Source of the DNA: Spirochaetia bacterium
Lineage (GTDB): Bacteria > Spirochaetota > Spirochaetia > SZUA-6 > Bin103
NCBI GenBank assembly: GCA_965208575.1
Contig: CBDBOV010000004.1
Span: forward strand, 1,312,001 to 1,376,000
Reading direction: 5' to 3'
DNA length: 64,000 nt
Shown piece after piece: positions 1-13,986 of this stretch (the first letter of the stretch is position 1; each line of letters starts with the position of its first letter). The position numbers were made by a program, and so were the translations under genes. Below the pieces are notes generated by a model. The model saw nothing but the letters and a program-made list of their open reading frames with translations, was not told where the DNA came from and did not search any database.

Positions 1-1467
<1,467 letters not shown>

Positions 1468-1492
1468 CGGCGCGCCGGTAAGCGCCGCCGGC

Positions 1493-1526
1493 GTCATCGA
1501 CCGGCAGGCCCTTCGGCCTCGATGAC
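1493..1526 (+). terminator. Stem-loop after ppdK (no U-tract)
   Basis: GTCATCG...AGGCC-CTTC-GGCCT-CGATGAC inverted repeat about 25 nt after the stop. Confidence 0.35.
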
Positions 1527-1688
1527 CTGGCGATTCACCCGCCCAGCGGGTCGCACCCGGCCGGCGTGCGCACCGCCGTTGCCGTTGGCAGAGGCTGCCG
1601 GGGCATGTGCCGCCTCCACTCCCAGCTCCTGGTAACGGCACATTCGGGTCTACTGGAATGATCGGTCGAAGCATGGTATCCTGGCGCC

Positions 1689-2693
1689 ATGGCTGAGTAC
1701 CGCGCCGCCGCCGTGCCGCGCCCGGTCAGGCGCGCGACGCCGCCCTTGGAGTTTCCCGGCTGCCGGGCGGTGCGCATTGCGCGCGCCGACATCGAGCGCT
1801 GCGAACGCCGCATCGAGTACTGGGACGCCGCCACCGAGACCGCCATGATTTGCGATCCGGTCAGCGTCTACCACGAACACCCGGGCCAGCGCCTGCGCGA
1901 GCTCGCCACCCGCATCGCCCAGGTGCGCGGCTCGCCGATCGAGACGTTCGGCGCGGCCGACCTCCTGCTGCGCGATGCCGACGGCGCCTGGCGGCGCATC
2001 CTGGAGGCGGACCAGACCGTCTACCTGCACCCGCGCACCACGCGGCCACAAGGCGCCCGGATCGAAGTGGGCACCGACGCGCTGCCGGACGTGGTGCTGG
2101 AGGTGGACAACACCACCGACGTGCGCCGCGGCAAGCTGTCGCTGTACGAGTCGTGGGGCTTCCCGGAGGTGTGGGTGGAGGTGCCCGAGCAGTCCTCGCC
2201 GAGCCGCCCGGCGGCGCTGCGCCCCGGCCTGACGATCTACCTGCTCGAGGAAGGCCGCTTTCGCACCGCGCCCGCCAGCCGCGCCTTTGCGGGCTGGACG
2301 GCGGCGGAGATCCACCAAGCGCTGAACGAGCCGGAGCTGTCGGACGCCTCCATGGCCGTGTTGCGCAGCATCGGACGAACACTGGGCGCGGCGCTGGGAA
2401 CCGGTCCGGACGACGACCCGCTGCTGCGCACCGAGCGCCGGGAGAGTCGCGCCGAGGGCCTTGTCGCAGGCCGGACAGCGGGACACGCGGAAGGCCGGAC
2501 CGCGGCGCGCGCGGCGACGCAACGGGAGGCCGTCCTGCAGGTGTTGCAGTCGCGCGGCCTGCCGGTGTCCGCGGCGTTCCCCCGCCACCTGGCGCAATTG
2601 CAGGGCGTCTCCACCGCGGCATTGGTTCAGGCCGCGCTGGACTGCCGCGACGAGGACGACTTCCTGCGGCGGACTCGCACCAAACAACACTGA
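1689..2693 (+). CDS. Uma2 (DUF820)-like PD-(D/E)XK putative endonuclease, copy 1
   Basis: RIEYWD, P...HE, EADQTVY, PDVVLEVD, K..LY...GFPEVW pattern; C-terminal AEG-type repeats and a helical tail. Confidence 0.8.
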   Translation: MAEYRAAAVPRPVRRATPPLEFPGCRAVRIARADIERCERRIEYWDAATETAMICDPVSVYHEHPGQRLRELATRIAQVRGSPIETFGAADLLLRDADGAWRRILEADQTVYLHPRTTRPQGARIEVGTDALPDVVLEVDNTTDVRRGKLSLYESWGFPEVWVEVPEQSSPSRPAALRPGLTIYLLEEGRFRTAPASRAFAGWTAAEIHQALNEPELSDASMAVLRSIGRTLGAALGTGPDDDPLLRTERRESRAEGLVAGRTAGHAEGRTAARAATQREAVLQVLQSRGLPVSAAFPRHLAQLQGVSTAALVQAALDCRDEDDFLRRTRTKQH

Positions 2694-2957
2694 AGCGCCC
2701 GACGTTCAAGTGACCCGCTCGCGGCAGGCGCTGCGCTGAGTTCTCAGCACCGGCCCGCAGTCGAGCATCGTGGCAGAAGATGCCGCCACCCGAACGGCGG
2801 TACTGGACCGGCTGCCGCCGTTGCAGCGAGGCACGGCGCCACTCAACTTGCAACTGGGGAAGCACGAAGCGACGGCGACGACGCGGTAGCCCAGATCCCT
2901 TGTACCGCATAATCGGGTCTACTGGAATGATCGGTCGAACCGTGGTATCCTCGTGCC

Positions 2958-3938
2958 TTGGCTGAGTACCGTGCCGCCGCCGTGCCGCGCCCGGTCAGGC
3001 GCGCGACGCCGCGGTTGGAGTTTCCCGGCTGCCGGCCGGTGCGCATTACGCGCGCCGACATCGCCGACTACGAGCGCCGCATCGAGTACTGGGACGCCGC
3101 CACCGAGACCGCCATGGTGTGCGATCCGGTCAGCGTCTACCACGAACAACCGGGGCAAGCGTTGGCGCGGCTGCTCCAGACCATCGCCCACTTACGCGGC
3201 GCGCCCATTGCCACCTTCGGCGCCGCCGACCTCCTGCTGCGCGATGCCGACGGCGCCTGGCGGCGCATCCTGGAGGCGGACCAGACCGTCTACCTGCACC
3301 CGCGCACCACGCGGCCCCCGGGTGCCCGGATCGAAGTGGGCACCGACACGCTGCCGGACGTGGTACTGGAGGTGGACAACACCACCGACGTGCGCCGCGG
3401 CAAGCTGGCGCTGTACGAGTCGTGGGGCTTCCCGGAGGTGTGGGTGGAGGTGCCCGAGCAGTCCTCCCCGAGCCGCCCGGCGGGCCTGCGCCCCGGCCTG
3501 ACGATCTACCTGCTCGAGGAAGGCCGCTTTCGCACCGCGCCCGCCAGCCGCGCCTTTGCGGGCTGGACGGCGGCGGAGATCCACCAAGCGCTGAACGAGC
3601 CGGAGCTGTCGGACGCCACCATGGCCGTACTGCGCAGGATCGGACGAACGCTGGGTGCGGCGCTGGGAACCGGCCCGGACGACGACCCGCTGCTGCGCAC
3701 CGAGCGCCGGGAGAGTCGCGCCGAGGGCCATACAGCAGGCCGGACCGAGGCGCGCGCGGCGACACAGCGGGATGCCGTCCTGCAGGTGTTGCAGTCGCGC
3801 GGCCTGCCGGTGTCCGCGGCGTTCCCCCGCCACCTGGCGCGCTTGCAGGGCGTCTCCACCGCGGCGTTGGTAGAGGCCGCGCTGCACTGCCGCGACCAGG
3901 ACGACTTCCTGCGGCGGACTCGCCCGAAACAACACTGA
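2958..3938 (+). CDS. Uma2-like putative endonuclease, copy 2 (TTG start)
   Basis: Paralog of copy 1 with the same motifs. Confidence 0.8.
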   Translation: MAEYRAAAVPRPVRRATPRLEFPGCRPVRITRADIADYERRIEYWDAATETAMVCDPVSVYHEQPGQALARLLQTIAHLRGAPIATFGAADLLLRDADGAWRRILEADQTVYLHPRTTRPPGARIEVGTDTLPDVVLEVDNTTDVRRGKLALYESWGFPEVWVEVPEQSSPSRPAGLRPGLTIYLLEEGRFRTAPASRAFAGWTAAEIHQALNEPELSDATMAVLRRIGRTLGAALGTGPDDDPLLRTERRESRAEGHTAGRTEARAATQRDAVLQVLQSRGLPVSAAFPRHLARLQGVSTAALVEAALHCRDQDDFLRRTRPKQH

Positions 3939-4014
3939 AGCGTCGGGCGTTCACGTGGCCCGCTCGCGGCAGGCGCTGAGTTCTCAGCATCGGCCGGTCA
4001 CCCAGCGCCGTGAC

Positions 4015-4265
4015 TCAGTAGCGGTACGTGGTCTTGAAATTCGCGGCGTGTTCGGGCAGGGAGTGCGCGCGCTCGCGCCGTTCTCCAGACAACTCGACGT
4101 CCAGGGCGGCTGACGACGCCCTGAAACGGGTGCCGAGCCGCACGTGGCTCGCGCCGTCGGCGAGCCCTGCCTCGGTGAAAGGCGTGAACACCCCCCACGG
4201 CGAGGCGAAACCATAGCCGATGCTCGCTTCGAGCGAACCGGTCTCGGCGCCCATGCTTGCCGTAA
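4015..4265 (-). pseudogene. 3'-end fragment of an autotransporter/beta-barrel-like outer-membrane protein gene
   Basis: Reads ...LEASIGYGFASPWGVFTPFTEAGLADGASHVRLGTRF...FKTTYRY-stop: amphipathic beta-strands and a terminal aromatic residue; no 5' part. Confidence 0.55.
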
Positions 4266-4400
4266 CAGCGAGTTGCCGCGCCACTCCGCTGGCAACTGGG
4301 GGAAGCACGAAGCGACGGCGACGACCCGGTAACCCAGCTCCCGCGTACCGCATACTCGGGCCTGCTGGAATGATCGGTCGAGACATGGTATCCTCGTGCC

Positions 4401-5357
4401 ATGGCTGAGTACTGCGCCGCCGCCGTGCCGCGCCCGGTCAGGCGCGCGACGCCGCCCTTGGAGTTTCCCGGCTGCCGGGCGGTGCGTATTTCGCGCGACG
4501 ACCTCGAACGCTGCGAGCGCCGTATCGAGTACTGGGACGCCGCCACCGAGACCGCCATGATTTGCGATCCGGTCAGCGTCTACCACGAACACCCGGGCCA
4601 GCGCCTGCGCGAGCTGGCCACCCGCATCGCCCTGGTGCGCGGCTCGCCGATCGAGACGTTCGGCGCCGCCGACCTCCTGCTGCGCGATGCCGACGGCGCC
4701 TGGCTGCGCATCCTGGAGGCGGACCAGACCGTCTACCTGCACCCACGCACCACGCGGCCACCGGGCGCCAGGATCGAGGTGGGCAGCGACACGCTGCCCG
4801 ACGTGGTGCTGGAGGTGGACAACACCACCGACGTGCGCCGCGGCAAGCTGGCGCTGTACGAGTCGTGGGGCTTCCCGGAGGTGTGGGTCGAGGTGCCCGA
4901 GCAGTCCTCCCCAAGCCGCCCGGCGGGCCTGCGCCCCGGCTTGACGATCCACCTGCGGGAGGGCGGCGCTTTTCGCACCGCCGCGCACAGCCGGGCCTTC
5001 GCGGGCTGGACGGCGCCGGAAATCCACCGCGCGCTGAACGAGCCGGAGTTGTCGCACGCCACCCTGGCCGCGCTCCGGCGCGTGGGGCGCGCGCTCGGCG
5101 CGGCCGCGGGCACCGGGCCGGACGACGACCCGCAGATGCGCACCGAGCGCCGGGAAAGCCGCGCCGCGGGCCGGGTGGAGACACAGCGGGAGGCCGTGCT
5201 GCAGGTGCTGCAGTCGCGCGGCCTGCCGGTGTCCGCCGCGTTCCCGCGGCGCCTGGCGGAGTTGCAGCCCGTGTCCACCGCCGCACTGGTTCGGGCGGCT
5301 CTGGAGTGCCGCGACGAGGACGACTTCCTGCGGCGCACTGGCACGAAACAACACTGA
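4401..5357 (+). CDS. Uma2-like putative endonuclease, copy 3
   Basis: Paralog of copy 1; most divergent in the C-terminal half. Confidence 0.8.
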   Translation: MAEYCAAAVPRPVRRATPPLEFPGCRAVRISRDDLERCERRIEYWDAATETAMICDPVSVYHEHPGQRLRELATRIALVRGSPIETFGAADLLLRDADGAWLRILEADQTVYLHPRTTRPPGARIEVGSDTLPDVVLEVDNTTDVRRGKLALYESWGFPEVWVEVPEQSSPSRPAGLRPGLTIHLREGGAFRTAAHSRAFAGWTAPEIHRALNEPELSHATLAALRRVGRALGAAAGTGPDDDPQMRTERRESRAAGRVETQREAVLQVLQSRGLPVSAAFPRRLAELQPVSTAALVRAALECRDEDDFLRRTGTKQH

Positions 5358-5416
5358 AGCGCCGGCGCACTCGATTCTACTGGAATGATCGGTCGAAGCT
5401 ATGGTACCCTCGTGCC

Positions 5417-6385
5417 GTGGCTGAGTACCGTGCCGCCGCCGTGCCGCGCCCGGTCAAGCGCGCGACGCCGCGGTTGGAGTTTCCCGGCTGCCGGCCGGTG
5501 CACATTGCGCGCGCCGACATTGAGCGCTGTGAGCGCCGCATCGAGTACTGGGACGCCGCCACCGAAACCGCGATGATTTGCGATCCGGTCAGCGTCTACC
5601 ACGAACATGCTGGGCAACGCCTACGCGAGTTGCTGACGCTGATTGCGCAGGTGCGAGGTTCGCCGATTGCTACTTTCGGCGCCGCCGACCTCTTGCTGCG
5701 CGATGCCGACGGCGCCTGGCGGCGCATCCTGGAGGCCGACCAGACCGTCTACCTGCACCCGCGCACCACGCGGCCACAAGGCGCCCGGATCGAAGTGGGC
5801 GCCGACACGCTGCCCGACGTGGTGCTGGAGGTGGACAACACCACCGACGTGCGCCGCGGCAAGCTGGCGCTGTACGAGTCGTGGGGCTTCCCGGAGGTGT
5901 GGGTGGAGGTGCCCGAGCGGTCCTCCCCGAGCCGCCCGGCGGGCCTGCGCCCCGGCCTGACGATCTACCTGCTCGAGGAAGGCCGCTTTCGCACCGCGCC
6001 CGCCAGCCGCGCCTTTGCGGGCTGGACGGCGGCGGAGATCCACCAAGCGCTGAACGAGCCGGAGCTGTCGGACGCCTCCATGGCCGTGTTGCGCAGGATC
6101 GGACGAGCGCTCGGTGCGCCCCTCGGCACCGGGCCGGACGACGACCCGCTGCTGCGCACCGAGCGCCGGGAAAGTCGCGCCGAAGGCCGGACCGAGGCGC
6201 GCGTGGAGACACAGCGGGAGGCCGTGCTGCAGGTGTTGCAGTCGCGCGGCCTGCCGGTCTCGGCGGCGCTTCCCCGCCACCTGGCGCAATTGCAGGGCGT
6301 CCCCACCGCCACGCTGGTAGAGGCCGCGCTGCGCTGCCGCGACGAGGACGACTTCCTCCGCCGGACTCGCACGAAACAACGCTGA
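5417..6385 (+). CDS. Uma2-like putative endonuclease, copy 4 (GTG start)
   Basis: Start placed by alignment with the other copies; lies within track ORF 4562..6385. Confidence 0.8.
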   Translation: MAEYRAAAVPRPVKRATPRLEFPGCRPVHIARADIERCERRIEYWDAATETAMICDPVSVYHEHAGQRLRELLTLIAQVRGSPIATFGAADLLLRDADGAWRRILEADQTVYLHPRTTRPQGARIEVGADTLPDVVLEVDNTTDVRRGKLALYESWGFPEVWVEVPERSSPSRPAGLRPGLTIYLLEEGRFRTAPASRAFAGWTAAEIHQALNEPELSDASMAVLRRIGRALGAPLGTGPDDDPLLRTERRESRAEGRTEARVETQREAVLQVLQSRGLPVSAALPRHLAQLQGVPTATLVEAALRCRDEDDFLRRTRTKQR

Positions 6386-6540
6386 ACCGCCCGTATTCAA
6401 GCGGCCCGGCTCACGGCAGGCGCTGCGCTGCCATTGCCGATCCGCGTATTCGCGAACCCGTCGGTGAACGAGGAATGGGCTTGGGTGAGCCTATTCGGAC
6501 CTACTGGAATGATCGGTCGAGCCCGTTGTATCCTCGTGCC

Positions 6541-7521
6541 ATGGCTGAGTACCGCACTGCCGCCGTGCCGCGCCCGGTCAGGCGCGCGACGCCGCCCTTG
6601 GAGTTTCCCGGCTGCCGGCCGGTACCCATGTCGCGCAACGAGATCGAACACTGCGAGCGCCGTATCGAGTACTGGGACGCCACCACCGAGACCGCCATGA
6701 TTTGCGATCCGGTCAGCGTCTACCACGAACACGCTGGGCAACGCCTACGCGAGTTGCTGACGCTGATTGCGCAGGTGCGAGGATCGCCGATTGCTACTTT
6801 CGGCGCCGCCGACCTCTTGTTGCGCGATGCCGACGGCGCCTGGCGACGTATCCTGGAGGCCGACCAGACCGTCTACCTGCACCCGCGCACCACGCGGCCA
6901 CAAGGCGCCCGGATCGAAGTGGGCAGCGACACGCTGCCCGACGTGGTGCTGGAAGTGGACAACACCACCGACGTGCGCCGCGGCAAGCTGTCGCTGTACG
7001 AGTCGTGGGGCTTCCCGGAGGTGTGGGTCGAGGTGCCCGAGCAGTCCTCCCCGAGCCGCCCGGCGGGCCTGCGCCCCGGCTTGACGATCCACCTGCTGGA
7101 GGAGGGCGGCTTTCGCACCGCGCCCGCCAGCCGCGCCTTTCCGGGCTGGACGGCGGCTGAGATCCACCAAGCGCTGAACGAGCCGGAGCTGTCGGACGCC
7201 ACCATGGCCGTGTTGCGCGGCATCGGACGAACGCTTGGTGCAGCGCTGGGAACCGGCCCGGACGACGACCCGCTGCTGCGCTCCGAGCGCCGGGAAAGTC
7301 GTGCCGAGGGCCATGCAGCAGGCCGGACCGAGGCGCGCGCGGCGACACAGCGGGATGCCGTGCTGCAGGTGTTGCAGTCGCGCGGCCTGCCGGTGTCCGC
7401 GGCGCTTCCCCGCCACCTGGTGCAGTTGCAGGGCGTCTCCACCGCCACGCTGGTAGAGGCCGCGCTGCACTGCCGCGACGAGGACGACTTCCGCCGCCGG
7501 ACTCGCGGGAAGCAACGCTAA
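6541..7521 (+). CDS. Uma2-like putative endonuclease, copy 5
   Basis: ATG placed by alignment; lies within track ORF 5578..7521. Confidence 0.8.
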   Translation: MAEYRTAAVPRPVRRATPPLEFPGCRPVPMSRNEIEHCERRIEYWDATTETAMICDPVSVYHEHAGQRLRELLTLIAQVRGSPIATFGAADLLLRDADGAWRRILEADQTVYLHPRTTRPQGARIEVGSDTLPDVVLEVDNTTDVRRGKLSLYESWGFPEVWVEVPEQSSPSRPAGLRPGLTIHLLEEGGFRTAPASRAFPGWTAAEIHQALNEPELSDATMAVLRGIGRTLGAALGTGPDDDPLLRSERRESRAEGHAAGRTEARAATQRDAVLQVLQSRGLPVSAALPRHLVQLQGVSTATLVEAALHCRDEDDFRRRTRGKQR

Positions 7522-7854
7522 ACCGCCGGTATTCAAGTGGCCCGGCTCACGGCAGGCGCTGCGCTGCCACTGCCGATCCGCGTATTCGCGAACCCGGGAA
7601 AGCAGGTACCTGCGCTTCCATCTCCACCGCGCGGTCCTGCACAATGGCATCCACCGTCCCGGATCGATAGATGCGCTCGGCAAGCAGACGATCATAGGCG
7701 CGGCTAAAGCCGCGGCAACCTGTCCTCGGACCCGGCACGCGCACATCCTGATCTATCCTGACAAGTCGGACACGTCGGTGAACGAGGAATGGGCTTGGGT
7801 GGGCCTATTCGAGCCTACTGGAATGATCGGTCGAAGCTATGGTATCCTCGTGCC

Positions 7855-8811
7855 ATGGCTGAGTACCGCGCCGCCGCCGTCCCGCGCCCGGTCAAACGCG
7901 AGATGCCGCCCTTGGAGTTTCCCGGCTGCCGGGCGGTGCGCATTGCGCGCGCCGACCTTGAACGCTGCGAGCGCCGCATCGAGTACTGGGACGCCGCCAC
8001 CGAGACCGCCATGGTGTGCGATCCGGTCAGCGTCTACCACGAACAACCGGGCCAGGTGTTGGCGAGGCTGCTCGGGACCATCGCGCACGTGCGCGGCGCG
8101 CCCATTGCCACCTTCGGCGCGGCCGACCTCCTGCTGCGCGATGCCGACGGCTCTTGGCGGCGCATCCTGGAGGCGGACCAGACCGTCTACCTGCACCCGC
8201 GCACCACGCGGCCACAAGGCGCCCGGATCGAAGTGGGCACCGACACGCTGCCGGACGTGGTGCTGGAAGTGGACAACACCACCGACGTGCGCCGCGGCAA
8301 GCTGGCGCTGTACGAGTCGTGGGGCTTCCCGGAGGTGTGGGTCGAGGTGCCCGAGCAGTCCTCCCCGAGCCGCCCGGCGGGCCTGCGCCCCGGCTTGACG
8401 ATCTACCTGCTGGAGCAAGGGAGCTTTCGCACCGCGCCGGACAGCCGCGCCTTTGCGGGCTGGACGGCGGCGGAGATCCACCAAGCGCTGAACGAGCCCG
8501 AGCTGTCGGCAGCCACCATGGCCGTGTTGCGCAGGATCGGACGAGCGCTGGGGGCGGCGCTGGGAACCGGGCCGGACGACGACCCACTGCTGCGCTCCGA
8601 GCGCCGGGAGAGTCGGATCGCAGGCCGCGTGGAAACACAGCGGGAGGCCGTGCTGCAGGTGTTGAAGTTGCGCGGCCTGCCGGTCTCGGCTGCGCTTTCC
8701 CGCCACTTGGCGCAGTTGCAAGGCGTCTCTACCGCGGCGTTGGTGGAGGCCGCGCTGCACTACCGCGACGAGGCCGACTTCCTGCGGCGCACTCGCAGCA
8801 AACAACGCTGA
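7855..8811 (+). CDS. Uma2-like putative endonuclease, copy 6
   Basis: ATG placed by alignment; lies within track ORF 7789..8811. Confidence 0.8.
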   Translation: MAEYRAAAVPRPVKREMPPLEFPGCRAVRIARADLERCERRIEYWDAATETAMVCDPVSVYHEQPGQVLARLLGTIAHVRGAPIATFGAADLLLRDADGSWRRILEADQTVYLHPRTTRPQGARIEVGTDTLPDVVLEVDNTTDVRRGKLALYESWGFPEVWVEVPEQSSPSRPAGLRPGLTIYLLEQGSFRTAPDSRAFAGWTAAEIHQALNEPELSAATMAVLRRIGRALGAALGTGPDDDPLLRSERRESRIAGRVETQREAVLQVLKLRGLPVSAALSRHLAQLQGVSTAALVEAALHYRDEADFLRRTRSKQR

Positions 8812-8872
8812 AGCGCTGGTATTCAAGTGGCCCGGCTACTCGCGCGACGCCGCCGGAACGGAGGCCGATCGC

Positions 8873-8901
8873 TTGCTTGGAGTCCGTTAGCTCGCTATTC
8901 T
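8873..8901 (+). promoter_or_regulatory. Sigma-70-like promoter
   Basis: TTGCTT-17 bp-TATTCT, followed by GGAGG (8932) and ATG (8944). Confidence 0.5.
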
Positions 8902-9031
8902 ATGCAACACGAAAGCGCGTTAGGGCGAGTTGGAGGTATGTCGATGAGTAGCCCCCAACCGAGCAGTGCGTCTCGGCGCCGAGATACAGTTCCACGTTGG
9001 TAACGAGGAATGGGGGCCCGGGCAAGCCTGC

Positions 9032-9060
9032 GCCAGCCGCCGCCGAGGCGGACGGCTGGC
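9032..9060. terminator. Strong GC hairpin between the array and the convergent sigma gene
   Basis: GCCAGCCG-CCGCC-GA-GGCGG-A-CGGCTGGC; no U-tract. Confidence 0.45.
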
Positions 9061-9079
9061 ACACGACTCAGGACAAGCT

Positions 9080-9982
9080 TCAGGCCGAGTTGGCGAAGGC
9101 CTCCAGATGTTGGCTTCGGGAGGGGTGGCGCAGGCGGCGCAGGGCCTTCTTCTCGATCTGTCGGATGCGCTCCTTGGTGAGCGAGTAGCGCGAGCCGATC
9201 TCCTTCAGCGACAGCGGCTGCTTGCCGTTGAGGCCGAAGCGGCGCACGATGATGTCCGCTTCCTTCTCGGTGAGGGTGGCCAGCACCTTGTTGATCTGGT
9301 CCTTCAGCGCGCTGTCGTAGGCTTGGTCCTCGGGCGACTGGTACTCGGTGTCGGCCACGAAGTCGCCGATGCTGGAGGCGTCGCGGTCGGTCCCCACCGG
9401 GCTGTCGAGCGACACCAGGTCACGCGAGATGCTGACCAGCGACTCGACGTGCGCCGGGGCCATGTCCACTTCCTTCGCCACCGAGGCGAGGTTGGGCTCC
9501 GCGGAACGGTCGCCCTGCAACTGCTTGCGGGCCTTCTCGATCTGCACCAGCTCGTTGGCGCGGTTCAGCGGCAGGCGGATCATGCGCGACTTCTCGCACA
9601 CCGCCTTGAGGATCGCCTGGCGGATCCACCACACCGCGTAGGAAATGAAGTGGTATCCCTTGGTAACGTCGAAGCGCTCGACGGCGTTCATCAGGCCGAT
9701 GTTGCCCTCGCTGATCAGGTCGATCAGCGGCAGGCCCTGGTTCTGGTACTTCTTGGCGACGTTGACCACGAAGCGCAGGTTGGCCCGTACCAGGTGTTCC
9801 TTGGCGGCTTCATCGCCGTCGCGGGCACGGGTGGCCAGGTCGACTTCCTGCTCGCGGGTGAGCAGCGGTATCCGGTTGATGTCGCGCAGGTACAACGACA
9901 GCACGCTGTCGTCGCCACTGTCCGTGGTGGAGCGCTGCCGGGTGACGGACTTACGCGCACTGGTAGATTTCCTCTGAGGCAT
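9080..9982 (-). CDS. RNA polymerase sigma-70 factor, short (no region 1.1), RpoS/SigA-like
   Basis: LYLRDINRIPLL, NLRFVVNVAKKY, DLISEGNIGL, FISYAVWWIRQAI, LTKERIRQIEKKAL. Confidence 0.93.
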   Translation of the reverse strand: MPQRKSTSARKSVTRQRSTTDSGDDSVLSLYLRDINRIPLLTREQEVDLATRARDGDEAAKEHLVRANLRFVVNVAKKYQNQGLPLIDLISEGNIGLMNAVERFDVTKGYHFISYAVWWIRQAILKAVCEKSRMIRLPLNRANELVQIEKARKQLQGDRSAEPNLASVAKEVDMAPAHVESLVSISRDLVSLDSPVGTDRDASSIGDFVADTEYQSPEDQAYDSALKDQINKVLATLTEKEADIIVRRFGLNGKQPLSLKEIGSRYSLTKERIRQIEKKALRRLRHPSRSQHLEAFANSA

Positions 9983-11421: not shown

Positions 11422-13986
11422 CTGCCCGCCCGACTCGTCCGCTGCCGTCCCCTCGAACCCGAGGAACTCGCGCACCCGGTCCACCAGTTCCGCCCCCGGC
11501 GCGGTTTCCAGGCGTACGTCCGGCAGCGAGCGCAGAAACGCCGCCCCGTAGCTCTTGCGTGCCAGCCGCACGTCGAGGAACAGCACCACGCCGCGGTCGT
11601 CGTGCCGCCGGATCAGGCGGCCGAACCCCTGCCGCACGCGCATCACGGCGCGCGGCAGCGTGAGCGCCAGGAACGGGTCGGCGCCGCTCTGCGCCACCCG
11701 CGCCATCTGTGCCGCGGCCACCGGGTGGCTCGGAACCGAGAACGGCAGGCGGCAGATCACCACCAGGCTGAGCGCTTCGCCCGGCGCGTCGATGCCCTCC
11801 CAGAACGAATCGGTTGCCAGCAGCACGCTCGCGGTGTCGCCGCGGAACCGGTCCAGCAGGCGGTGGCGGTCGTCGTCGCCCTGGCGCAGGACGGTGATGC
11901 CGGCGGCCGCCAGCGGTTCCTGGAGCTGGCGAAACGAACGGTCCAGCATCGCGTACGAGGTGAACAGCACCAACGCCCGCCCGCGGCTGGCGCGCAGCAC
12001 CGCGACCAGGTAGCGGCCGAGCCACGCCTGGTGTTCGGCGGCGGTGGGCTCCGGGGCATCGATCGGGATGCCGGCCAGCGCCTGCTCCCGGTACGCGAAC
12101 GGCGACGGATACTGCTCGGTGAATACCGGCCGCGAGGTGACCTCGGCCAGCCCCACCCGCCCGCACCAGAACCCGAAGTCGCCGGCAACGGTCAGCGTCG
12201 CCGAGGTCAGCACCACGCTCGGATAGCGGTCGAAAATCGCCGCCCGCATCAGCGGCGCCACCTCCACCGGTGTCACCACGAGCCGCGCCGCCGCCGTGCC
12301 GTCGCGGCGGCGGAAACCCTCCACCCAGCGCACGGCGTTGCCCGCCAGTTGGCCATCCGCGCGTGCCGGCACGCTGCCCAGGCGCTCGCACAGCCCGGCG
12401 GCGGCGCGCATGCGGCGCGCCTGAATACGCAGTTCCACCGCATCGGCGTCATCGCGGTCCGCCGGCTCGGCGGCATCCAGCGCCGCCGACACCGCACCGG
12501 CGAGGCTCGCCAGCGTTGCCCCGGTCGCCTCCAGCGTTTCCACCAGGCCGCGGTCGCCCGGCACGTCCAACACCGCCGCCGGTTCGCCGACGAGCTGGCG
12601 CGCGGCGGCGCGCTCCAGCCGGCCGGCCAGGCGGCGCAACTGTTCCACCTGCGCCACTACCGCGCCCAGATCTCGGCCGGCGCCGATGAACCAGTCAGCG
12701 CGGCGCGGCACCAGCCCGTGTTGCCCGCCGAGTCGTCCGCCACGGCTGCCGCCGAGTCGTCCGCCACGGCTGCCGCCGTGGCGGGCGCTGACCAGCCGGC
12801 CGGCAAGTCGTTCCAGCCCGGTGCGCGCGAGCCGCTGCGAAAAGAACGAGGCGGCGTTGCTCTCGATGGCGTGCGCTTCGTCGAACACGATGCGCCGGAA
12901 CCCCGGCAGCACGGCCGCGCTGGCCAGGGCTTCGCGCCCGCCGCCGCCCGCCAGGCGGATCGCCAGGTCGGCGAACAGCAGGTGGTGGTTCACCACCAGC
13001 AGGCGTGCCGCCGCCGCCTCGCGGCGGGCGCGCAGCACGAAGCACGCCTCCCGGTCGGGGCAGCGCAGCGCGTTGCAGGCATCGCCCTCCGAACACACCA
13101 AGTCCCAGGTGGCGCCGGCGGTCGCAAACGGCAGGTCGCTGCGGCTGCCGGTGGGGCTGGCCAGCGACCACTCGTAGATGGCGCGCACCTCGGCGGCGGC
13201 GTGTGGGTCGAGCGCACCCTCCGCGATGGCCGCGGGCAGGCCCTGCGCGTCGGCATGCACCTCGCGCAGGCGGCGCAGACACAGGTAGTTGCCGCGCCCC
13301 TTGACCAGGCAGCTCTTCACGTCGGTGCCGAGCATGCGCTGCACCAGGGGCAGATCCTGCGCCATGAGCTGCTGCTGCAGGTTGATGGTGGCCGTGGACA
13401 CCACCACCCGCTCGTCGTTGGCGTCCGCCCACGCCACCGCCGGTACCAGGTAGGCGAGCGACTTGCCGATGCCGGTGCCCGCCTCGGCCGCCACGATCAC
13501 CTCGTCGTTGAACGCGTCGCATGCCGCCTGCAGGAGCGAGACCTGGCCCGCCCGCTGCTCGAACCCCGGGTGCAGCCGGTGCAGGGCGCCGCCCGCGCGC
13601 AGCGTGGCGGCCAGCGCGCGCGTGTCGAGCGGCCTGCGCTCGCGGCGCGGCGCCGGTTCGGCGACCACGTAGATGCGCGACACCGCATTGTCGACGATGC
13701 AGAACCCCTTGCCCTGGTCGCCCACCCAGCCGGCGACGGCGAGGTCCGCCTCGCTCGGCTGCAGCAGTCCCGAGGGATGGTTGTGAATCAGCAGGTCGGC
13801 GCCGTCGACGTAGGGGGCGAGTACCGGCACTTCGCGGTCGTTGCCGCGCGCGGCGATGGTCACGCTGCGCACCAGGCCGCCGGTATCGCAGTTGCCGACG
13901 CAGAACACCTCGCGGCCATCCGCCTCCGCGATGGCGTCGCGCAGCGTGCCGGCCGCCGCCGGCGTAAACCAGGCGCCGATCTCCAT
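11401..13986 (-). CDS. DinG/YoaA-family ATP-dependent helicase with N-terminal JAB/RadC-like domain
   Basis: HNHPSG...PSEADL JAB motif; EAGTGIGKS, KGRGNYLC, DEAH, TSATL, SFWEGIDAPG, QGFGRLIR. Confidence 0.9.
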   Translation of the reverse strand: MEIGAWFTPAAAGTLRDAIAEADGREVFCVGNCDTGGLVRSVTIAARGNDREVPVLAPYVDGADLLIHNHPSGLLQPSEADLAVAGWVGDQGKGFCIVDNAVSRIYVVAEPAPRRERRPLDTRALAATLRAGGALHRLHPGFEQRAGQVSLLQAACDAFNDEVIVAAEAGTGIGKSLAYLVPAVAWADANDERVVVSTATINLQQQLMAQDLPLVQRMLGTDVKSCLVKGRGNYLCLRRLREVHADAQGLPAAIAEGALDPHAAAEVRAIYEWSLASPTGSRSDLPFATAGATWDLVCSEGDACNALRCPDREACFVLRARREAAAARLLVVNHHLLFADLAIRLAGGGGREALASAAVLPGFRRIVFDEAHAIESNAASFFSQRLARTGLERLAGRLVSARHGGSRGGRLGGSRGGRLGGQHGLVPRRADWFIGAGRDLGAVVAQVEQLRRLAGRLERAAARQLVGEPAAVLDVPGDRGLVETLEATGATLASLAGAVSAALDAAEPADRDDADAVELRIQARRMRAAAGLCERLGSVPARADGQLAGNAVRWVEGFRRRDGTAAARLVVTPVEVAPLMRAAIFDRYPSVVLTSATLTVAGDFGFWCGRVGLAEVTSRPVFTEQYPSPFAYREQALAGIPIDAPEPTAAEHQAWLGRYLVAVLRASRGRALVLFTSYAMLDRSFRQLQEPLAAAGITVLRQGDDDRHRLLDRFRGDTASVLLATDSFWEGIDAPGEALSLVVICRLPFSVPSHPVAAAQMARVAQSGADPFLALTLPRAVMRVRQGFGRLIRRHDDRGVVLFLDVRLARKSYGAAFLRSLPDVRLETAPGAELVDRVREFLGFEGTAADESGGQKKSPSH
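12725..12778. repeat. 24-bp in-frame tandem repeat (GGSRGGRL x2) inside the helicase gene
   Basis: CCGCCGAGTCGTCCGCCACGGCTG twice plus a partial copy. Confidence 0.85.

Follow-up and report, generated by a model that had tools for sequence, protein, structure and literature searches.

How does a short piece of ppdK come to lie in the spacer between two genes of another family, and does it have any role there? The question is raised by a 64,000-nt stretch of DNA from a Spirochaetia bacterium (contig CBDBOV010000004.1, positions 1,312,001 to 1,376,000 of the forward strand), called the window below, in which six head-to-tail paralogous Uma2-like genes form a 7.6-kb array directly downstream of ppdK (Table 1). 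An earlier, sequence-only reading had pointed to a diverged ppdK segment in the spacer between the first two of these genes; it is referred to here as piece A.

The array is an insertion between two conserved convergent genes

The ppdK product matches the Pfam families PEP-utilizers_C (9.8e-85) and PEP-utilizers (4.7e-23), and the window PPDK is identical to the 890-aa protein P0001. The closest genome fetched, among the best 80 of at least 590 stretches, is a Spirochaetia MAG chromosome (locus L004), whose ppdK is 85% identical to that of the window in protein and matches it at 1264/1464 positions in DNA. In L004 the sigma gene (11491-12400, 86% aa identity) is the direct neighbor of ppdK: the two stop codons are ∼30 nt apart (11459-11495), the array (window 1468-9079) is absent, and synteny continues beyond. 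Uma2-like genes were found at none of the 80 ppdK loci, again the best 80 of at least 590 stretches (tblastn, E up to 1e-3). Because the array is missing from L004 and none of the 80 loci carries a Uma2-like gene, the 7.6-kb array is an insertion specific to this lineage, located between two conserved convergent genes and containing piece A. At the left edge of the insertion, the first ∼26 nt of the ppdK-unit 1 spacer resemble the short ppdK-sigma spacer of L004 when the sequences are compared by eye; 1468-1620 is not significantly similar to either ppdK or piece A.

Table 1. Features of the window from ppdK to the sigma-70 family gene.
Feature	Positions	Strand	Remarks
ppdK, pyruvate, phosphate dikinase; 3' 488 codons	1..1467	+	Parent gene of pieces A and B
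ppdK-unit 1 spacer	1468..1688	+	Short leader common to all units at 1621-1688
Unit 1 (u1), Uma2-like gene, 334 aa	1689..2693	+	
Unit 1 trailer	2694..2755	+	Palindrome 2735-2748; 82% shared with unit 2 trailer 3939-3995
Piece A, decayed copy of ppdK 577-638	2767..2828	+	Start possibly 2758
Unit 2 long leader	2829..2957	+	Similarity to unit 3 leader 4259-4400 begins within piece A (2817); the short leader makes up the last 68 nt
Unit 2 (u2), Uma2-like gene, 326 aa, TTG start	2958..3938	+	
Piece X	3996..4258	-	263 nt; occupies the spacer 2 slot equivalent to that of piece A in spacer 1
Unit 3 (u3), Uma2-like gene, 318 aa	4401..5357	+	No trailer
Unit 4 (u4), Uma2-like gene, 322 aa, GTG start	5417..6385	+	
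Unit 5 (u5), Uma2-like gene, 326 aa	6541..7521	+	
Piece Y	7597..7766	Not assigned	170 nt; in the unit 5-6 spacer, missing from the otherwise matching unit 4-5 spacer
Unit 6 (u6), Uma2-like gene, 318 aa	7855..8811	+	
Piece B, second ppdK-derived piece (ppdK 1164-1187)	8833..8856	+	23/24; joined to the truncated unit 6 trailer
Lower-G+C (62%) unique sequence before the sigma-factor stop codon	8857..9079		223 nt
Sigma-70 family gene, convergent with ppdK	9080..9982	-	Pfam Sigma70 r1_2, r2, r3, r4

The Uma2-like units

The five other copies share 83-89% protein identity with unit 1, and all six are 86.5-93.6% identical in DNA. The Pfam Uma2 model scores unit 1 at 19.8 bits, below the cut-off of 27, yet all of the 23 family members compared match it at E up to 0.01, the best at 7.9e-6; given the sub-cut-off score and the 23 weak matches, the genes are named Uma2-like. 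A few database relatives of the units bear a precomputed PF05685 label. The Pfam match spans only about residues 103-166 of the unit proteins, and their conserved C-terminal region of ∼130-170 aa has no family match. NCBIfam returned nothing meaningful for the six unit proteins, and a profile search against solved structures gave weak matches, with E 0.046 to a putative restriction endonuclease domain protein. Among 8000 scored candidates, 3437 are relatives of unit 1 at E up to 1e-3; the named ones are called 'hypothetical protein [Spirochaetaceae bacterium]' or 'Uma2 family endonuclease'. Two Uma2-like proteins putatively from the nearest relative (the P0012 genome) share no more than 90% identity with any window copy, as against 98.65% for ppdK. 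If the compared proteins do come from that genome, the units turn over or evolve much faster than their neighborhood.

A leader of ∼55-68 nt is conserved at every unit and a trailer at most of them. The leaders (1621-1688, 2890-2957, 4333-4400, 5363-5416, 6489-6540 and 7803-7854) end in TGGTATCCT, a few bases before the start codon, which varies among ATG, TTG and GTG. By its letters TGGTATCCT looks like an extended -10 box, and it lies so near the start codon that leaderless mRNAs are conceivable.

Apart from the Uma2-like one, no protein family was found in the units. They lack terminal inverted repeats, and no inverted repeat pairs leader with trailer. A transposable element with defined ends was considered and rejected, since the units contain neither terminal inverted repeats nor a transposase family. 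Neither the unit 1 protein nor the spacer 1 DNA had a match in the plasmid collection.

Piece A is derived from ppdK

Piece A aligns to its ppdK counterpart without gaps at 53/62 identities (85.5%), and the two agree in strand and codon phase; they translate as IVAEDAATRTAVLDRLPPLQR and IVADDAATRKAALDRLLPLQR, respectively. When 2756-2890 was compared by blastn with the array-masked window, the match scored 72.5 bits, against a mean of 28.1, a standard deviation of 2.5 and a maximum of 41.0 bits for 300 dinucleotide shuffles of this 135-nt query. Against the remaining 54.9 kb of real window sequence, ppdK never scored above 36.5 bits. Short matches are inflated by high G+C, but the shuffles and the comparison with real sequence refute chance similarity in this 70% G+C genome, whose probability is practically nil. 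The ppdK origin of piece A is certain.

Extending piece A leftward by nine bases to 2758 gives 58/71 identities, and the homology may thus reach back to 2758. Several particulars of the sequence-only reading hold up here: the ungapped in-frame match itself, a start ∼18 nt past the trailer palindrome, a 3' end that overlaps the long leader shared by copies 2 and 3 (by its last 12 nt, from the alignment of 2817-2957 with 4259-4400), and four synonymous and five third-position differences among the nine, as counted in a codon comparison.

Cut off at both ends (2758/2767 and 2828), piece A cannot encode the enzyme. The in-frame open stretch across it, read by eye, covers only 2740-2886. A 61-aa frame across piece A (2780-2962) was also searched against 1.84 billion representative proteins and gave one marginal match (E 8.9e-4, 45%), which is uninformative.

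Decay of the coding signature in piece A

The nine mismatches between piece A and ppdK fall at codon positions 3, 3, 3, 2, 3, 2, 3, 2 and 1, and four of the differing codons are synonymous. The excess at third positions (5/9) does not reach significance (binomial p=0.145). Of the nine differing sites, six have G/C in the gene and A/T in piece A. A/T occupies the third position in 5/20 codons of piece A, compared with 20/488 in ppdK (Fisher p=0.0018) and 0/20 in L004; expressed as third-position G+C, piece A has 15/20 and the gene segment 19/20. With L004 as outgroup, five differences are assigned to the branch of piece A, among them a Leu to Pro change, one to that of the gene, and three are ambiguous.

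The residues of piece A were compared with those of 120 PPDKs, the best 120 of 7998 scored and the closest in this region, all of which could be mapped. Pro17 of piece A occurs in none of them (114 have Leu and six Met) and Thr10 in two. Val12 occurs in 29, including the nearest relative P0012 and P0014, and Glu4 in 102. Piece A therefore shows the signs expected of relaxed constraint, an excess of A/T at third positions and a Pro at a site otherwise restricted to Leu or Met. It no longer has the coding signature of its clade and carries a residue that no PPDK tolerates; on the strength of the A/T third positions and Pro17 we read it as a decaying relic. At 85.5%, its identity to ppdK is close to the values for the non-coding sequence of units 1 and 2 (leader 84%, trailer 82%). 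The sequence-only reading had taken the substitution pattern as a sign of a functional ppdK in a related organism. This is not supported, given the p value of 0.145, the G/C to A/T direction of the changes and the five that fall on the piece's own branch.

A second ppdK piece and the junctions of the array

Spacers 1 and 2 have a common trailer up to 2755 and 3995, respectively (82%), and a common long leader from 2817 and 4259 (85%). Between the shared trailer and the shared leader, spacer 1 holds piece A and spacer 2 the unrelated 263-nt piece X. The last 12-14 nt of piece A overlap the shared leader, matching ppdK at 11/12 and spacer 2 at 12/14 positions (hand count in a three-way alignment); either spacer 2 has retained the tail of piece A, or a stretch of chance similarity served as the joining site. 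The left join of piece A has no clear microhomology overlap. To its right, 2829-2889 resembles neither ppdK nor the ppdK-unit 1 spacer.

Piece B, at the far end of the array, also lies on the same strand as ppdK. It starts where the unit 6 trailer breaks off, with a 5-nt overlap, CGGCT, common to trailer and ppdK, and matches the trailer sequence that it replaced at only 10/24 positions. Its score of 43 was reached in none of 500 pooled dinucleotide shuffles of the six spacer pieces against both ppdK strands (maximum 38). The homologous place of the L004 ppdK likewise matches it at 23/24. Pieces A and B thus share the ppdK strand, each follows a unit trailer, and the two are colinear with the gene (577-638 before 1164-1187), bracketing units 2-6. 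The order from trailer to ppdK fits a tandem-duplication join for both, and in each case the sequence that follows is not the ppdK continuation. No weaker ppdK copies were found in 1468-1620, 2829-2889, 3996-4332 or 7597-7766, where the scores were reached by 32 to 160 of 200 shuffles. When the spacer pieces were compared with the 80 related loci (the best 80 of at least 590) by blastn and tblastx, only A and B matched ppdK and the rest was noise.

Piece X is coding-like in minus frame 1, with a third-position G+C of 0.83. It has no Pfam family and one partial protein match: the final 27 codons and the stop agree, at 26/27 residues, with the C-terminus of P0241, a 146-aa fn3-domain protein. 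P0241 lies putatively on the same 3,243-nt contig as the Uma2-like protein P0138, which suggests that unit flanks travel with the units. The fifth spacer corresponds to the fourth plus piece Y, as 6386-6460 is 96% identical to 7522-7596 and 6453-6540 is 89% identical to 7767-7854. Piece Y has a lower G+C (62%), no family match and no Atlas match. The only sigma-70-like promoter match in the array is located inside it, on the minus strand (7718-7691). Unlike at all other junctions, unit 4 begins 59 nt past the stop codon of unit 3, with no trailer between them.

Every junction of the array differs from the others. Pieces A and B, taken with the other junction inserts, show that the six genes were brought together beside ppdK in several illegitimate joins and not by one clean amplification. 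The sequence-only suggestion that units were once inserted in or near ppdK is borne out in part: the location of the array directly downstream of ppdK and of piece B at its far end ties its rearrangement history to that gene.

A proposed local history for pieces A and B

We favor, with a probability of roughly 55%, the reading that piece A, together with piece B, is what remains of a partial ppdK copy of the organism's own lineage, a decaying relic without function that was left at a unit junction as the array grew. The comparisons establish the ppdK origin of piece A, its junction position, its lost coding signature and its place within an array-specific insertion; the order of events, and the descent of A and B from one segment, we infer. 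A Uma2-like unit would have landed between the convergent ppdK and sigma genes. A local illegitimate duplication could then have put a 5'-truncated ppdK segment (from ∼568-577) directly after the unit 1 trailer. The interior of that segment may have been lost by further unit gain and microhomology-mediated deletions, leaving only its ends, of which A (577-638) now precedes unit 2 and B (1164-1187) follows unit 6, and both would then have drifted neutrally toward A/T.

This local reading is supported by the fact that A and B are both significant ppdK matches on the same strand, colinear and each preceded by a trailer. It also draws on the local gene being the nearest of all DNA compared (53/62 identities to piece A, against at most 47/62 in 76 orthologs from the best 80 of at least 590 stretches), on the CGGCT microhomology at piece B, on the A/T decay and on the absence of the array from L004. 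The identity of piece A to ppdK, being like that of the leader and trailer of units 1 and 2, is a further point in its favor, and bacterial amplifications are reported to have junctions that show microhomology or lack homology, at least in the accessible part of the source (PMC11721125).

Several observations weigh against it. A simple single duplication does not predict piece B after unit 6 with neither the ppdK 3' end nor a unit behind it, and because the sequences to the right of A and of B are not ppdK continuation, single-duplication models need extra deletions. The right junction of piece A is left unexplained, as 2829-2889 is unlike ppdK. The colinearity of A and B has a prior of only about 1 in 8 under independence, and the two pieces, with 9/62 and 1/24 differences, need not be of the same age. 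Finally, the eight closer peptides among 120 PPDKs described below, together with Val12 in P0012 and P0014, also fit import from a close relative.

Alternative sources of the ppdK pieces

According to the sequence-only reading, piece A derives from the ppdK of a related organism or from an old local duplication, and an ortholog closer to piece A than the local gene would support lateral origin. At the DNA level, 76 of the 80 loci (the best 80 of at least 590) could be mapped to the 62-nt segment, and none was closer to piece A than the local gene; the best ortholog was L004, at 47/62 vs 53/62 for the local gene, and PPDK relatives of the P0012, P0003 and P0014 type, which are closer in protein, are absent from these 80 loci. 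Over the peptide, eight of the 120 listed PPDKs are nearer to piece A than the local gene, which matches it at 17/21 residues: P0014 at 19/21, and P0003-5, P0012, P0022 and P0067-68 at 18/21. These closer matches result from retention of the ancestral Glu and in some cases of Val as well.

P0012 is 98.65% identical to the window PPDK over 890 aa, P0003 97.4% and P0014 93.5%. In a maximum-likelihood tree of 42 of these PPDKs the window protein is placed beside P0012 and then P0003, and parsimony on the tree indicates that Glu4 is ancestral and that the local Asp4 arose on the window's own branch. Piece A would then either have left the ppdK lineage before the Asp4 substitution or have come from a close relative still with Glu. 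Since Glu is ancestral and the local Asp derived, an older local copy accounts for the closer peptide matches. Of the sequence-only proposal, the derivation from ppdK stands; on a foreign source the orthologs point both ways, with 0/76 closer in DNA and 8/120 closer in peptide.

It is therefore possible, though unlikely in our estimate, that a closely related strain or species donated piece A from its ppdK, together with one or more incoming Uma2-like units. Besides the peptide matches, the Uma2-like proteins putatively from the nearest relative, at most 90% identical alongside a 98.65% identical ppdK, would be consistent with fast turnover or exchange of units, and piece X resembles P0241, from another genome and seemingly near a Uma2-like gene, at 26/27 residues. 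However, the additional peptide matches reflect ancestral states of the clade (Glu in 102/120), which an older local copy explains equally well, and no closer DNA was found among the 76 orthologs from the best 80 of at least 590 stretches. The A-ending codons of piece A are atypical for any gene of this high-G+C clade, which argues that most differences post-date the copying, whatever its source. Moreover, the array adjoins the very gene that piece A resembles.

A further alternative dispenses with any longer copy: A and B could be two independent templated patches, short ppdK stretches copied into the joins by template switching or break repair. We consider this improbable, although both pieces are short (62 and 24 nt) and located exactly at unit junctions. 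The 5-nt microhomology at the join of B would suit such patching, and the overlap of ppdK, spacer 1 and spacer 2 at 2818-2831 can be read as a near-identity patch used for a switch. Unrelated filler (X and Y) is present at other junctions, and all junctions are different, which is not expected from plain unequal crossing-over. Nevertheless, independent patches do not predict the shared strand and colinear order of A and B. Templated filler is documented mainly in eukaryotes, which counts against it here, and the 14.5% divergence of piece A points to an old event of which no mechanistic trace is left.

A bolder variant, which we regard as decidedly doubtful, is that Uma2-like units are self-propagating nuclease cassettes, and that break repair at the installation of each copy patches in nearby or donor DNA. 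Were this true, pieces A, B, X and Y would be a readable record of single cassette insertions, and there would be a mechanism for the unexplained expansions of Uma2-family genes.

Tests for function of piece A

A functional role for piece A, whether as a guide-like spacer, as a small RNA or as a regulator of ppdK or of unit 2, is very improbable. Its location between a trailer hairpin and a leader and the occurrence of two ppdK-derived pieces in one array could be taken to favor such a role. No Rfam 15 covariance model matched 1-9500 at E up to 1, though, the fold of spacer 1 RNA is unremarkable (z=-0.87), and spacer 1 contains no consensus promoter or terminator. The spacers are irregular, ranging from 59 to 462 nt between genes of ∼1 kb, with junction inserts from none to 263 nt, and only the last 12 nt of piece A are common to the sister spacer. 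In addition, piece A is oriented sense to ppdK and its substitutions look neutral. The sequence-only idea that the spacers are captured, guide-like sequences thus finds no support in their irregular lengths, the lack of an Rfam match and the ordinary fold.

Comparison with known systems

The likeness of the array to CRISPR-type or other spacer-capturing arrays is limited to a superficial alternation of repeated and unique segments. In contrast to those systems, its 'repeats' are genes of ∼1 kb, there is no short regular repeat, the inserts measure from none to 263 nt, and no RNA family matches.

The array is closer to lineage-specific expansions of Uma2 (DUF820, PF05685), which comprise many paralogs of a predicted PD-(D/E)XK nuclease. 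The accessible parts of two sources describe copy-number expansions in Thermosynechococcus (PMC9403480) and a variable, mobile-element-associated Uma2 context in gamma-proteobacteria (PMC3424549); gene fragments at Uma2 junctions are not mentioned in those parts of either paper. The present case differs from those expansions in belonging to a spirochaete lineage and in forming one tight head-to-tail array. The array proteins exceed the Pfam core match by ∼130 aa, and most of them score below the Pfam gathering threshold.

Alone, piece A is a small relic with no consequence for ppdK or the cell. Considered with piece B and the other inserts, it is a modest marker of the way in which Uma2-like arrays form. 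Should these junction pieces also turn up in close relatives, the events could be dated, and local duplication could be told from strain exchange in the spread of Uma2-like genes, a matter that the literature, as far as its accessible parts go, leaves open.

The closest parallel is with the gene relics found at bacterial duplication and amplification joins. Like them, piece A is a truncated piece of a neighboring gene, in the orientation of that gene, located at a repeat boundary and with its coding signature lost. One junction of the array, that of piece B, has a short microhomology; the accessible part of PMC11721125 describes bacterial amplification joins both with microhomology and with no homology. 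Unlike in a fresh, uniform amplification, the repeats here are old (86.5-93.6% DNA identity), all junctions are different, and two pieces of one gene survive. We conclude that piece A is a further instance of a known feature, a gene relic at a rearrangement junction.
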